From IMG/VR virus record IMGVR_UViG_3300029305_011402: a stretch of DNA of 64,000 nt; one strand, 5' to 3'. Source of the DNA: an uncultured virus (IMG/VR IMGVR_UViG_3300029305_011402) (lineage: Duplodnaviria > Heunggongvirae > Uroviricota > Caudoviricetes). The notes under the pieces were generated by a model. It did not search any database. It saw only the letters and a list, made by a program, of their open reading frames with translations, and was not told where the DNA came from. Numbering within the stretch: position 1 is the first letter of the stretch; each line of letters opens with the position of its first letter. This document shows positions 51,867 to 62,916 of the stretch, piece after piece. The translations under genes and the position numbers were made by a program.

Positions 51867-52217
51867 TCACTCTTGTTTGGCATTGCTGTGTTTTTTTTGC
51901 TCTTTGGCTGAATTGGTGTCATCTGGTTTGATTGTTTCTTGCTGTTTGGCTGTTGTGTTATCGTCTCTTTGATTTGTTGGTATTTCTTTCAAAGTATCTT
52001 CTGTTGTTTGGTTGCTATTTTCCTGCCCAGTTTCTTTTGCTTTTGGCTTTTTGACAATGCCAAAAACAACCAAAACGCCACAAATTGACATTATGACTTC
52101 TTCTGCACCTTTTGCAGAAATCGAAACGCCACATGCTTTGCCAATGGCGACGACCAAAAGTCCAACTGCACCTGCAAGTGCTGTCCAAAATTTATACGAT
52201 TTGATTAGTTTTTTCAT
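51867..52217 (-). CDS. Holin-like membrane protein
   Basis: KS.KFW.AL...L...GIV..P two-TM pattern. Confidence 0.6.
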   Translation of the reverse strand: MKKLIKSYKFWTALAGAVGLLVVAIGKACGVSISAKGAEEVIMSICGVLVVFGIVKKPKAKETGQENSNQTTEDTLKEIPTNQRDDNTTAKQQETIKPDDTNSAKEQKKHSNAKQE

Positions 52218-52443
52218 TTTTGCTCCTTTTGACAGAAGGAATTTTTGTTAAACATTGTTTAATTTCCGAAACATCCTGTTTGATCTCGTCAACTGTGTTT
52301 AATTTTGTAGCCAATTTGTTAATAATATCTTGATATTTTATTTCTCGTTTGTGTGAGTCTTTTAATGTAAACGCAAGTAGCGCCACAAAAAGACAGGCAA
52401 AAATTCCATTAGATATCGCAATATTAAACACATCACTCCACAT
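52192..52443 (-). CDS. BhlA/UviB-like holin
   Basis: SNGIFACLFV.LL...LKDS.KRE.KYQ.II..L. Confidence 0.85.
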   Translation of the reverse strand: MWSDVFNIAISNGIFACLFVALLAFTLKDSHKREIKYQDIINKLATKLNTVDEIKQDVSEIKQCLTKIPSVKRSKNEKTNQIV

Positions 52444-52447
52444 AAAT

Positions 52448-53347
52448 TTAACCTTGCAATTGTTTTAAAAGTTTGTTGTAATAACTATTTCCCAAGTTCT
52501 CTTTGTAAATTGGATTGCTTGCAAGTTCTGCTAGAGCCTGGGCTTTATCCATTGCAGAAAAATGTTCTTTGGCAATTTCATATTTTTCTTCTTGTTTCAT
52601 CATATTTATGCCAATAAGACCTCTTTCGTACCTTTCGGCAAAATCCATTATTTGTTTATAATGTTTTTCGTCTTGCTCTGCATCAAATTCGGCTTGCTTT
52701 TCTGCAATTTGATTGTTGTATTTAATTACCTCTTGTTCTTCTTTTAAAATTGTTTCGTTTAGCGAATTAATTTTGTCTTGAAGTTTTACTGCATACTCTA
52801 TATTAAACGAATTTAAAGCATTAAGTTTTTCTTGCTCTAGTGAAGCCTTTTCGTCAGTTAAAGTCTTAATTTGTGCATCAGTTTTATTTGACAATTCTTT
52901 TAAATCGTCCAGCATACTATTGTCATACTCGCTTAACTTGTTGACAATAATTGACGAGCGTGCAAGCCCGCGTTTGATGGCATCATTTGACGCATCTTCC
53001 TTAACCTTTTCGTATGTATTTTGAATGGTTGCTTGCTTTTGCTGTTTTTCTTGGTTTGCTTGTTTTACGCTTTGGTCAATTTGCTCAGATTTGGTTTTAA
53101 AAGAATCTTCTATGCCCTGAAGCGAGTTGTTTTTATAACTTTCCAAACTGCTTTTTGCACTGCTTTCAACCTGCTCTATGCTTGGTTTTTCATACTCCAA
53201 TTCTTTAAGGTTTAACTCTTGCTTGTCACTTCTTATTTTATAGTTATCATCAACTTCTTGAAATTTTTCTAAAATTGACTTGGATTGTTCGGCTTGTTGT
53301 TTAACTTTTTTTGTTGTTTGTTCATCAACGTTAAATTGATACATCAT
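52448..53347 (-). CDS. Coiled-coil putative ejection/internal virion protein
   Basis: AIKRGLARSSI motif resembling LAEMGLSNSGY of 23861..26038; follows tail tubular B. Confidence 0.5.
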   Translation of the reverse strand: MMYQFNVDEQTTKKVKQQAEQSKSILEKFQEVDDNYKIRSDKQELNLKELEYEKPSIEQVESSAKSSLESYKNNSLQGIEDSFKTKSEQIDQSVKQANQEKQQKQATIQNTYEKVKEDASNDAIKRGLARSSIIVNKLSEYDNSMLDDLKELSNKTDAQIKTLTDEKASLEQEKLNALNSFNIEYAVKLQDKINSLNETILKEEQEVIKYNNQIAEKQAEFDAEQDEKHYKQIMDFAERYERGLIGINMMKQEEKYEIAKEHFSAMDKAQALAELASNPIYKENLGNSYYNKLLKQLQG

Positions 53348-53438
53348 TTTCTCCTTTTTTTAGGATTCTTTTTTTAATTCTATTTGTTAGCATTTTTAAC
53401 AAATCTTTGTTTATAATCATCACCATTTTAAAAGTCCT

Positions 53439-60245: not shown

Positions 60246-60246
60246 A

Positions 60247-62118
60247 TTACTCACCAACATTTTGCGACTGCAAATTTAAACTTTTAAATTGTTTGTGTAA
60301 CCTTATGTGTTCAAGCATTTTATCTTCTATTTGTTTTGTACAATTTTTTTCGTAGTCGCCACCAAGCATAAAGGCAATATGTTCGTTTATGTGAATGTCG
60401 TGGTCGTCAATTTCTTTAACTTCAACCAGTTGTCCGTGCATAAATTTTGAGTTTTCGCAAGATGCCTTTTTTTGGTGTAATTCCAAAATGTCTTGAGCAT
60501 TTTCCCAAACGCCAAAGCCGAGTAGTTCAAGCGCCTTAATTCTCATACGGTTTGATAGTTTTCCGTCTTGGTCATGCAAAAGCCCTGCCTTTAACAAATC
60601 AAAAACCATACTTCGTCTTTGTGCAAGCGACTCGTTTAGTTCGGTATCTGTTTCAAAGGCAACTTCATCACTGGTTATGTCAGATGAACAAAAATATTCA
60701 AGTTCCAACTCGCCGTGGTCGCCAACAATTTTTAAAAGTCTTGGCTGGGTTGCAAACTGTTTGTAAAGCCTTAAAATATGCCTTGCAACCATTTTTATTG
60801 CAAACTTAATTTGGTCGCTTGTAACCGAAAGCCTTGCTTGGTCTTGTTCAATCAAAAGTTGCATGGCTATACCGGAAATGTTTGTTCTTGCAAGGTTGGT
60901 GTTTAAAATATCACTCACACCGCTTATTGTTTTAAACTCGGCTAGTAGTTTTTCTTCTTCTACATCAAAGTCTGCTGGGACATTTGTGTTGCCCATATAA
61001 CTTGGTGCAGACGAGCCTTGCCTATACACCAAAATTTTGCCTGGCGATAAACCCTCTTCTTCCAAATTTTCAACATCAACTGAGCCGTCTTCAACGGTTA
61101 ACACGCCCATAGAAAGACGATTTATATATTCGTGTTTTCTATTTTTTATTGCATTGTATGCCCTTTGAACAGGAATAATTCTTTCAATTATGCTACTGCC
61201 CCAAAAACATCCACTTTGTTCCAAACAAACTTGTCTAACAAATGGAAATGTTCTATCGTCATTGCTACCGTTGTCGTATGGCAATTCGCCGTCATACAAA
61301 AGTTGGTCGCCGGCAACAATGGTGAGCCTGCCGTTTGGATGTTTTTCGCTTGCTCTTTCGTATCTTTCAATAACTACGGCGTAACCACTTTTGACTGTGT
61401 TGACAACTTTTGTTGCTTGAGCTTTATACCCAAGCCCGCCGAGGCCGTCAGTTTTGTTGTCTAGCGAAAACACATTAACATCACCACCGGCAACTTTTTT
61501 GCCCCAGAGTGCTTCAATTTCGTCAACATGATATGCCTTTGCGTGAATAATTGACTTGCAATCTTCTAGCCCAGCGCAACAAGAACTTTCTGGATAAATT
61601 TCAAATGGCGAACAAATGCTAATGCACACATCACCCATTTTTAACTTTTTGCCGGTTTGGTCTTTTGCAAACGTTTGTCCCTTTTGGTTGTCCCAAGTAA
61701 TTTTGTAAAACACCGTACCTGTTGTTTCGCTCCACTTTGTTGCGTCTGAAATGAGTTTTGACATATCTTCTTTGTTATAAATTGAATTAATAATTTTTTT
61801 ACTTAATTTTGCAGTTTTTACATCCGATTCATCACCGCTTGCTGGCACAACTGTCATTGTTGGTCTTACTGTTTTTAACTTTGCAAGTCGGGTTTCGGTT
61901 ATGGTTGCAATATGGTTAAACACTTCCCTTTCTTGCCAAAAAAATTGTTTGTCAAATTCTTCAATATCGTTGTTATAACCCACACTGCAATATTGATTGC
62001 CCATTAAAAAATTCATATTTAATTGCCATAGGGCATCAAATGGTTTTCTTTCTTCACTTCTTTTTTTAAAGTCCTGTTGGACATCATTTATTAATTGTTG
62101 TTCTTCTAATTTTTTCAC
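60247..62118 (-). CDS. Portal protein of cluster 2
   Basis: 623 aa; FWGSSIIERIIPVQRAYN and ISGVS...SG.A..LL.EQD motifs. Confidence 0.85.
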   Translation of the reverse strand: MKKLEEQQLINDVQQDFKKRSEERKPFDALWQLNMNFLMGNQYCSVGYNNDIEEFDKQFFWQEREVFNHIATITETRLAKLKTVRPTMTVVPASGDESDVKTAKLSKKIINSIYNKEDMSKLISDATKWSETTGTVFYKITWDNQKGQTFAKDQTGKKLKMGDVCISICSPFEIYPESSCCAGLEDCKSIIHAKAYHVDEIEALWGKKVAGGDVNVFSLDNKTDGLGGLGYKAQATKVVNTVKSGYAVVIERYERASEKHPNGRLTIVAGDQLLYDGELPYDNGSNDDRTFPFVRQVCLEQSGCFWGSSIIERIIPVQRAYNAIKNRKHEYINRLSMGVLTVEDGSVDVENLEEEGLSPGKILVYRQGSSAPSYMGNTNVPADFDVEEEKLLAEFKTISGVSDILNTNLARTNISGIAMQLLIEQDQARLSVTSDQIKFAIKMVARHILRLYKQFATQPRLLKIVGDHGELELEYFCSSDITSDEVAFETDTELNESLAQRRSMVFDLLKAGLLHDQDGKLSNRMRIKALELLGFGVWENAQDILELHQKKASCENSKFMHGQLVEVKEIDDHDIHINEHIAFMLGGDYEKNCTKQIEDKMLEHIRLHKQFKSLNLQSQNVGE

Positions 62119-62360
62119 TTTTTCTCCTTTATTATTAAATGGTGTTTATGCTTGCTTAGTAATTTTTAATGAATAATGAATAATTAATAATGAATAGTGA
62201 AGGATAACTATATAAATTCTTTTTATTAAAATTGCCATCCATTATTCACAAGTTCATTGTTCATTAATGCGTACTTAACTCGAATTTTTAACTTTCATAC
62301 AAATCGGACATCCATTATTCACTATTCACTATTCACTATTCACTATTCATTTAAAAACCA

Positions 62361-62570
62361 CTAACTCAACTTCTTCACTTTCTTATACGGTGCTTCCACC
62401 CCTTTGGGCACAATAACTCTTGCCACGCATTCGTAAATTTTTTTAACGCACTCATCACAAAGGTTTAGCCTTTTGTTTTTGTCGTTTGGCTCTGCAAGAC
62501 AAGTGCTAGCCAAATTTTTACAAACCGGAAAATCGCACTTGATTTTGTTTGCAATTTTAGTTATCTCCAT
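62361..62570 (-). CDS. Small zinc-finger protein
   Basis: CDFPVC...LCDEC. Confidence 0.6.
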   Translation of the reverse strand: MEITKIANKIKCDFPVCKNLASTCLAEPNDKNKRLNLCDECVKKIYECVARVIVPKGVEAPYKKVKKLS

Positions 62571-62916
62571 TTTCGTTTTCTTCCCCCTTTATTTCAACAA
62601 AGATATCTTTATCGGTCAGCTCTTGATATTCCTTAAAAAGTTTGATGGCAACTTGGTCCATTTCTTCATCAGTTAGATTCGAGTAATCTGTTTGACTGTT
62701 ATTAGCATCAACTTCCAGCAAAAACTTTGCCGCCGATATATCCGCAGGCACATAAAATTTTGAAACCTTGCGCTTTAACAACACATCTTTGCCAGCCTTT
62801 TCATCATGAGCAAATTCTTCTACTACTTCTTTGGTGGTGTAACCAGTTGCTTTTTTTTGCACCGCCAATAAAACTTTTTTTATAATGTCGCTGTCAATTG
62901 TTTGGTTGCTTTTCAC
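62557..62916 (-). CDS. Terminase small subunit-like protein
   Basis: KKATGY...E...K.YVPADISAAKFLL motif; GTG start after GGAGG. Confidence 0.6.
   Translation of the reverse strand: MKSNQTIDSDIIKKVLLAVQKKATGYTTKEVVEEFAHDEKAGKDVLLKRKVSKFYVPADISAAKFLLEVDANNSQTDYSNLTDEEMDQVAIKLFKEYQELTDKDIFVEIKGEENENGDN

Follow-up and report, generated by a model that had tools for sequence, protein, structure and literature searches.

A candidate gene transfer agent-like particle operon of podoviral origin in Christensenellales-type gut Clostridia

The 64,000-nucleotide stretch analysed here (the window), taken from IMG/VR record IMGVR_UViG_3300029305_011402 and filed as DNA of an uncultured virus of the Caudoviricetes, carries near one end an 11-kb operon of phage-type head, neck and lysis genes lying between host genes. 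The best reading of this operon, held with moderate confidence, is as one part of a particle system that derives from a podovirus, has been domesticated and is passed on with the chromosome of Christensenellales-type gut Clostridia; its particles are most likely of the gene transfer agent (GTA) type. The original prediction, made from the letters of the window, had proposed as its leading option a long-resident, host-maintained GTA-like module with its large terminase (TerL) encoded elsewhere, and this proposal fits every comparative test that was run. Its description of the genes stands for the intact run of open reading frames (ORFs), for most gene labels and for the list of absent phage functions, while the labels MuF-toxin, TerS-like (small terminase) and ejection-like found no support.

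Distribution, inheritance and selection

Relatives of the major capsid protein are numerous. More than 5,800 were found among the 8,000 top database candidates scored, and one is encoded in 420 of 444 candidate stretches from GTDB species genomes; the 80 related loci on which the counts below are based are the subset of such stretches that was kept. By record title most of the 420 are Christensenellales, and the titles of the 80 name Christensenella, Christensenellales, Catabacter, Candidatus Onthoplasma (Christensenellaceae in the NCBI lineage) or plain Clostridia. Evenly drawn samples of the order, class and family of G002, the nearest genome compared, gave the capsid gene in 192/401 genomes of the order, in 28 of the 399 scored genomes of the class (401 sampled) and in all 61 genomes of the family (0.7-1.6 Mb), as a single match in 55 of these. 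This is not the patchy, strain-specific presence that would have spoken against long residence. Nine of the family matches were flagged as containing internal stops; the five that were fetched are all single-frame, full-length ORFs of 394-402 aa, their flags stemming from match ends and not from broken genes, and pseudogenisation in relatives was not seen here either. Four family genomes carry two adjacent capsid paralogues, each 45-56% identical to the capsid of the window (G192:C2:8035-10367; G830:C4:70080-72444; G806:C19:3275-5613; G834:C23:10991-13331).

Across the 80 loci one gene order recurs: g01, g02, portal, scaffold, capsid, g12, adaptor, nozzle, DUF7934 protein, BhlA-family holin and second holin. 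Lineages whose capsid is 50-79% identical to that of the window have the operon between spoIIGA, a sigma factor, a deacetylase and a single-stranded DNA-binding protein (SSB) upstream, and a 313-aa gene, RNase J, an O-methyltransferase and a U32 peptidase downstream. The clade of the window has flanks in common with the window itself, with a methyltransferase, sometimes an aspartyl-tRNA synthetase, and a 275-aa gene upstream, and ileS downstream. The 30 representatives of the flank families that recur in the related loci, the part of the flanks that was scanned, include no integrase, primase or replication gene.

The pairwise identity of the capsid follows that of the flanking host proteins, with a rho of 0.75-0.92 over four of them (RNase J 0.81, SSB 0.90, deacetylase 0.92), and the capsid is more conserved than RNase J (median identity 66% vs 55%). 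For ten core genes, each compared with its 4-9 nearest relatives, dN/dS lies between 0.06 and 0.37: it is 0.055-0.107 for portal and capsid (0.065-0.107 for the capsid alone), 0.11-0.18 for the nozzle and 0.14-0.37 for the remaining core genes, some pairs giving no estimate because dS is saturated. Synteny, co-divergence and dN/dS all agree with the original prediction, and indicate that the operon is inherited vertically with its host and kept under purifying selection.

Matches further away, with 31-38% capsid identity, resemble ordinary phages or larger elements, in which TerL, portal, scaffold, capsid and g12 are followed by large tail genes. Another group, with 47-49% capsid identity (L097, 8435-11255; L098, 7064-11877), one cluster of which is named Ruminococcaceae/Oscillospiraceae, has scaffold, capsid and g12 genes together with adaptor-sized and nozzle-sized genes and no adjoining portal gene. 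These portal-less operons look like a further split of the system. Clusters of distant capsid relatives bear only the names Clostridiales, Ruminococcaceae and Oscillospiraceae.

A large terminase gene detached from the operon

Searches with Pfam, PHROG and NCBIfam gave no match to a TerL, integrase, replication, fibre or endolysin family within 51.8-63 kb of the window, as the original prediction had it. Enough sequence upstream is available for 56 of the related loci, and 42 of them have TerL no more than 4.5 kb ahead of the portal gene. This protein of 478 aa matches Terminase_6N (E 1.5e-17) and Terminase_6C, and its gene is preceded by c10 and by c11, a divergent gene for a membrane protein. 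Sigma-70 region 4 and/or DUF1492 is matched at E<=0.05 by 6/8 members of the c10 family, three of the eight lying above the Pfam curated score; DUF1492 proteins activate the late genes of Gram-positive phages. One subclade has a gene for a 791-aa GLUG/InlB-repeat protein between TerL and g01, and some relatives encode proteins of this kind within the operon or next to it.

In the clade of the window no TerL adjoins g01. All five nearest genomes have a single open cognate TerL (69-73% identity to the TerL of L011), which is found directly after groEL and still with c10 and c11. In the same way, a cognate TerL was found in 59 of the 61 family genomes, with more than 60% identity in most of them, both misses being genomes of 0.8-0.9 Mb. 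The orphan terL that had been predicted was thus found in relatives. Where TerL and the capsid gene share a contig, the distance between them is about 35 kb (G002), 40 kb (G825), 21 kb (G807) or, in the others, 4-11 kb; some near relatives have them on different contigs. In G002 (L087, 12124-13698), a tyrosine integrase gene and a Cro/CI-type helix-turn-helix gene directly follow the orphan TerL, and the operon comes about 32 kb later, on the same strand; in this genome TerL may have become separated from the operon with the help of a mobile element.

Gene content of the operon and its surroundings

The ORF listing of the window gives an unbroken minus-strand run from 62970 down to 51867, in which all ten core genes are intact (Table 1). 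The labels portal, capsid, adaptor, tail tubular protein B (here the nozzle) and holin, the last given twice, were borne out by family or fold matches.

Table 1. Features of the operon, in the direction of transcription
Feature	Position in the window	Strand	Basis
Candidate promoter/operator: T6A6 palindrome, then GTGGCA-like word	62975..63000	-	conserved upstream motif
g01, small conserved protein	62557..62916	-	tblastn match at the same position in 54/80 related loci
g02, 69-aa four-cysteine (zinc-ribbon-like) protein	62361..62570	-	two Cys pairs in translation; tblastn 50/80 loci
(AGTGAAT)n heptamer array, between g02 and portal gene	62316..62349	-	repeat scan
Portal protein, P22/SU10 type	60247..62118	-	PF16510 E 3.9e-26; phrog_156 E 5e-48; 75/80 loci
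g04, Cys/His-rich 218-aa accessory protein	59604..60260	-	window-specific cargo, outside the conserved core
g05-g07, three tandem paralogues of 112-114 aa (accessory cargo)	58510..59607	-	translations; 352-bp period repeat; GC ~27%
Scaffolding-protein candidate, 223 aa	57495..58166	-	between portal and capsid genes in 75/80 loci
Major capsid protein, podovirus type	56297..57490	-	NF033394 276 bits (cut-off 80); phrog_14242 E 1e-55
(AGTGAAT)5 heptamer array, directly after capsid gene	56229..56264	-	repeat scan
82-bp repeat, 2.7 copies, 99% identical	55962..56183	-	terminator-like hairpin in each copy
g12, conserved 110-aa protein, candidate head/neck accessory	55488..55820	-	55/80 loci
Head-to-tail adaptor, 189 aa	54941..55510	-	AlphaFold2 (AF2) + Foldseek
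Tail nozzle/hub, 503 aa, P22 gp10 and T7 gp12 class	53439..54950	-	AF2 + Foldseek
DUF7934 protein, Q/E/K-rich; candidate needle, plug or fibre	52448..53347	-	PF25588 E 9e-43; tblastn 42/80 loci
BhlA-family holin	52192..52443	-	PF10960 E 1.3e-17
Second holin	51867..52217	-	PF04531 (Phage_holin_1) E 1.8e-4; phrog_297 E 4e-10
Strong intrinsic-terminator-like hairpin, 11-bp stem + T run, closing the operon	51805..51832	-	hairpin scan

In NCBIfam the capsid matches only NF033394, capsid_maj_Podo (E<=0.01), and its ESM Atlas matches are exclusively clusters named 'phage major capsid protein', with PF17236 (SU10_MCP) on 28-37% of their members. Comparison of the block with 50,697 phage records by megablast gave no match and the best deposited phage capsids are about 26% identical (at most 27%), so no close full-length phage relative, which would have indicated a recent deletion, came to light. 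AF2 models built from the alignments of relatives reached a pLDDT of 87.6 and a pTM of 0.87 for the nozzle, and a pLDDT of 89.6 for the adaptor. The top Foldseek match of the nozzle is the Pa223 tail chain 9nwi_Y (E 1.5e-21, TM 0.76), and further matches include 8zkk_O, VP1, GP4, P22 gp10, SU10 and T7 gp12. The adaptor matches chains of Pa223 (9nwi_A, E 7e-7) and SU10 (7z4b_DU, E 1.8e-6; 7z47_A, E 2.6e-6), and also DEV and N4, with T7 gp11 lower in the list. Both proteins are identified by fold comparison only, since profile searches of PDB sequences with the nozzle, adaptor and g04 families returned no significant match.

With a P22-type portal, a podovirus capsid, an adaptor and a nozzle, the operon has the composition of a P22/SU10-like head-neck module. 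The further features of a complete podovirus (tailspike or fibre, ejection proteins, endolysin, replication/lysogeny module) were found neither in this block nor among the core genes that the related loci share. The remaining genes are less easily named. The candidate scaffold has no family match and owes its label, already given in the original prediction, to its position and conservation. For g01 no Pfam, PHROG or NCBIfam match was found, and the label TerS-like is therefore unproven; its likely start is a GTG at 62916, behind an AGGAGG site, in an ORF that is open up to 62970. No family match was obtained for g02, whose cysteine pairs agree with the zinc finger that had been announced, and nothing supports an ejection function for the DUF7934 protein. 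A g12 homologue, 40-50% identical, lies beside the capsid gene in 5/8 distant loci examined. Another clustered ORF family, c21, is an antisense ORF over the second holin and was rejected as a gene.

Between the portal and scaffold genes, the window has an insert (58510-60260, GC about 27%) of a 218-aa Cys/His-rich protein, g04, and three 112-114-aa paralogues, g05-g07, whereas in the 80 related loci the scaffold gene directly follows the portal gene. The g04 protein is found at this position in none of the 80, one weak tblastn match (26%) lying elsewhere in L060. Two of the five nearest genomes have a homologue elsewhere, split over two frames, with stop codons flagged at one site. Its family comprises 87 homologues of about 210 aa and shares a conserved H-P-x-C-H-C word, its only resemblance to the MuF motif; the 31 members compared with Phage_Mu_F (PF04233) gave no match at E<=1, against the MuF-toxin label, and the ESM Atlas gave no usable match. 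The last 22-27 residues of g05-g07 are identical among the three, which points to recent duplication or gene conversion. From their distribution, g04-g07 are accessory cargo and not part of the conserved core.

Upstream of g01, the best 14-mer shared by the clade lies at -83 to -96 of the start in 7/8 genomes and at -45 in L007, with 11 summed mismatches vs a minimum of 21 in 200 shuffles (0/200 reach 11). This T6A6-GTGGCA-like motif is a candidate promoter or operator of the operon. The LexA-box-like word GAACN4GTTC occurs nowhere in the 64-kb window.

The original prediction had drawn attention to heptamer arrays in the spacers of the operon and in the ileS leader. They are present at three sites (43141-43171, 56229-56264 and 62316-62349), each reading AGTGAAT along the transcribed direction; the number expected by chance is 0, and the prophage of the window has no such array. 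Upstream of ileS (42881-43174), a T-box leader (69 bits, below the Rfam gathering score of 93) is followed by (AGTGAAT)4 at 43141-43171, which fills the gap to the annotated start codon. The exact three-copy AGTGAAT pattern is missing from 91 related loci, and a perfect array of at least three copies of any heptamer from 105. The arrays are thus real but peculiar to this genome, and a weak sign of long residence. Each copy of the 82-bp repeat that follows the capsid gene carries a CAATGCAGGGCATTG hairpin and a T-rich tail; this repeat may terminate part of the transcripts and in that way set the expression of the tail genes relative to the capsid, or it may be a repeat element specific to the genome.

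Positions 1-42470 of the window hold a separate, complete-looking prophage of about 42 kb, some 10 kb from the operon; the nearest virus record, G001, matches this prophage only. It encodes TerS and TerL (27975-30183), a portal (26035-27978), its own capsid, a 3094-aa ORF (14332-23616), RecT/RecE/RusA, a recombination directionality factor and an 887-aa protein of the same PHROG family as the nozzle. It also has a diversity-generating retroelement, with a reverse transcriptase (3288-4361), Avd (4613-5011) and a Hoc-like target (1534-3288). Between ileS and degV, an island of low GC (26-28%; 46547-50690) that is absent from the related loci encodes a double D12-type adenine methyltransferase (618 aa), an HNH-like protein (459 aa) and an HNH endonuclease (271 aa) that has homing-endonuclease repeats. 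The island has the look of an insert of the restriction-modification or mobile-nuclease kind. The sequencing runs with a match, among those listed, are eight faecal/gut metagenome DNA runs and no RNA run.

Probable function, alternatives and known systems

Between 51.8 and 63 kb, phage-derived structural and packaging genes occur without replication, integration or lysogeny genes, which is the gene content used to define GTAs. Particles made from these genes would probably be unable to propagate the system as a virus, because its loci, as seen in near relatives, are tens of kb apart and lack replication and integration genes. GTA-like DNA packaging is the most likely function, with host DNA as the most probable content of the particles. 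In such a system, a signal from the host, perhaps relayed by the c10 regulator, would lead portal, scaffold and capsid proteins to build procapsids, which the trans-encoded TerL would fill with DNA by headful packaging. Adaptor and nozzle would then close the portal, with the DUF7934 protein as a plug or fibre, and the two holins, together with a lysin encoded elsewhere, would release the particles.

Several points weigh against this reading. The family is known from its genes, and the TerL locus from relatives of the genome of the window. No TerS was identified in the operon, and the family searches of 51.8-63 kb returned no endolysin, fibre or receptor-binding gene. Whether the headful could hold the whole system would depend on the size of the capsid. 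In the window, the operon is broken by the 1.9-kb cargo insert and by repeat arrays, which may affect expression. Moreover, about half of the sampled order lacks the element, which must have been lost or never acquired in many lineages, and the pairs behind the capsid co-divergence come from related genomes and are not independent data points.

The alternative that survives best is that the particles belong to the host but do another job: they might kill in the way of a bacteriocin, carry proteins or a toxin in the capsid, act as a decoy against phages, or serve a programmed lysis that releases DNA and public goods. The operon includes holins, one of the bacteriocin-linked BhlA family, and no fibre or receptor-binding gene. 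A PBSX-like killing role has also been left open by the authors who described FpGTA, the GTA of Faecalibacterium prausnitzii (Nat Commun 2026;17:2046, PMC12946183). The window has in addition a Cys/His-rich cargo gene and three small paralogues directly after its portal gene. However, a cognate TerL, mostly more than 60% identical, is kept by 59 of the 61 family genomes sampled, which argues that DNA packaging is still selected. Furthermore, the cargo, off this position in all 80 loci and split in 2/5 near genomes, is not a core function. The toxin-carrying capsid of the original prediction is not supported. An alternative role of this kind is judged unlikely.

Much less probable still is a satellite or defective element that would draw its terminase, tail parts and lysin from a helper phage, in this case the 42-kb prophage next to it. 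The operon lacks TerL, fibre and lysin genes of its own, and the TerS, TerL and portal of the prophage are only about 10 kb away. The prophage TerL (27975-29561) is however only 26-33% identical to the element-type TerL, and near relatives keep their own cognate enzyme, which leaves the proposal of a borrowed prophage terminase without support. TerL is also the only phage-type match among the 30 flank representatives, so that the operon has no recurrent prophage neighbour in the 80 loci, and it occupies conserved chromosomal sites with neither integrase nor replication genes among those representatives. As for a decaying prophage remnant without current function, the many missing phage functions and the low-GC insert and repeat arrays inside the operon would suit it, but it is hardly credible given ten intact core genes with dN/dS of 0.06-0.37 at saturated dS, a capsid gene present in all 61 family genomes sampled, whole ORFs in all five stop-flagged matches checked and a capsid more conserved than the flanking RNase J.

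A more far-reaching version of the GTA reading is quite possible, though put forward tentatively. The whole small-genome (0.7-1.6 Mb) gut Christensenellales family would keep an active podovirus-type GTA, with TerL and a sigma-like activator at one locus and the head-neck-lysis operon at another. The two loci would then account for the packaging reported for Christensenellaceae in faecal virus-like particles (VLPs), and the domestication would be independent of that of FpGTA, since the capsid is in a different family.

GTAs outside Alphaproteobacteria are barely known, and FpGTA, the first podovirus-type one from the gut, was published only in 2026; no other relevant publication on GTAs in Christensenellales or Clostridia was found besides PMC12946183. 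According to that paper, GTA-like packaging was seen in Christensenellaceae metagenome-assembled genomes in 3/25 events from human faecal VLPs, with no genes named, and the operon and its detached TerL offer a concrete, testable gene candidate for it. If active, the system would provide a major path for genes to move within a gut lineage that has reduced genomes; it would also be a natural example of a domesticated virus divided among loci that act in trans. The Christensenellales-type lineage is heritable and health-associated.

Among phages, the closest parallels are the P22-like and SU10/Pa223-like podoviruses, with which the system shares the PF16510 portal, the adaptor and nozzle folds and the P22 gene order (TerL, portal, scaffold, capsid, adaptor, nozzle). 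It differs from them in having no tailspike or fibre, ejection proteins, endolysin or lysogeny/replication modules. The hallmarks of phage-inducible chromosomal islands (PICIs), including the capsid-forming ones, are an integrase, a replication/primase module and mobility between sites; unlike these satellites, the system has no integrase or primase among the 30 flank representatives, and its chromosomal neighbours are conserved across deep lineages. RcGTA of Alphaproteobacteria, as presented in PMC12946183, is likewise a domesticated cluster of phage structural genes, vertically inherited and without autonomous replication; its loci are dispersed around the chromosome, as those of the present system are in near relatives. 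It is however siphovirus-like and unrelated in sequence, and its random DNA packaging and host regulation have been shown experimentally, whereas the present system is inferred from genes.

The likeness to FpGTA, as described there, is closer. Both systems have a host among gut Clostridia, a chromosomal position, no replication or integration genes, and a podovirus-type TerL, portal and capsid with a P22-gp10-like nozzle. Both are nearly ubiquitous within their host group, and both are spread over more than one locus, here as seen in near relatives. FpGTA particles are rich in a protein named 'TolA', to which the DUF7934 protein encoded after the nozzle here may be compared. The layouts differ in several respects. 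FpGTA has a 10.5-kb operon with TerS, TerL, portal, scaffold and capsid, and a second operon with fibre, receptor-binding protein, holin and endolysin, whereas here TerL is the detached part and the holins are in the head operon; no fibre/lysin locus of the FpGTA kind was found, no genome-wide search for one having been made. FpGTA particles, 40 nm across and tailless-looking, and their DNA of roughly 8.5-9 kb were demonstrated experimentally, while those of the present system are predicted. Its capsid (RCH50849.1) is named 'N4-gp56 family' and that of the window belongs to NF033394, a comparison made by model name only. The two systems are alike in kind and layout, and differ in the family name of the capsid.

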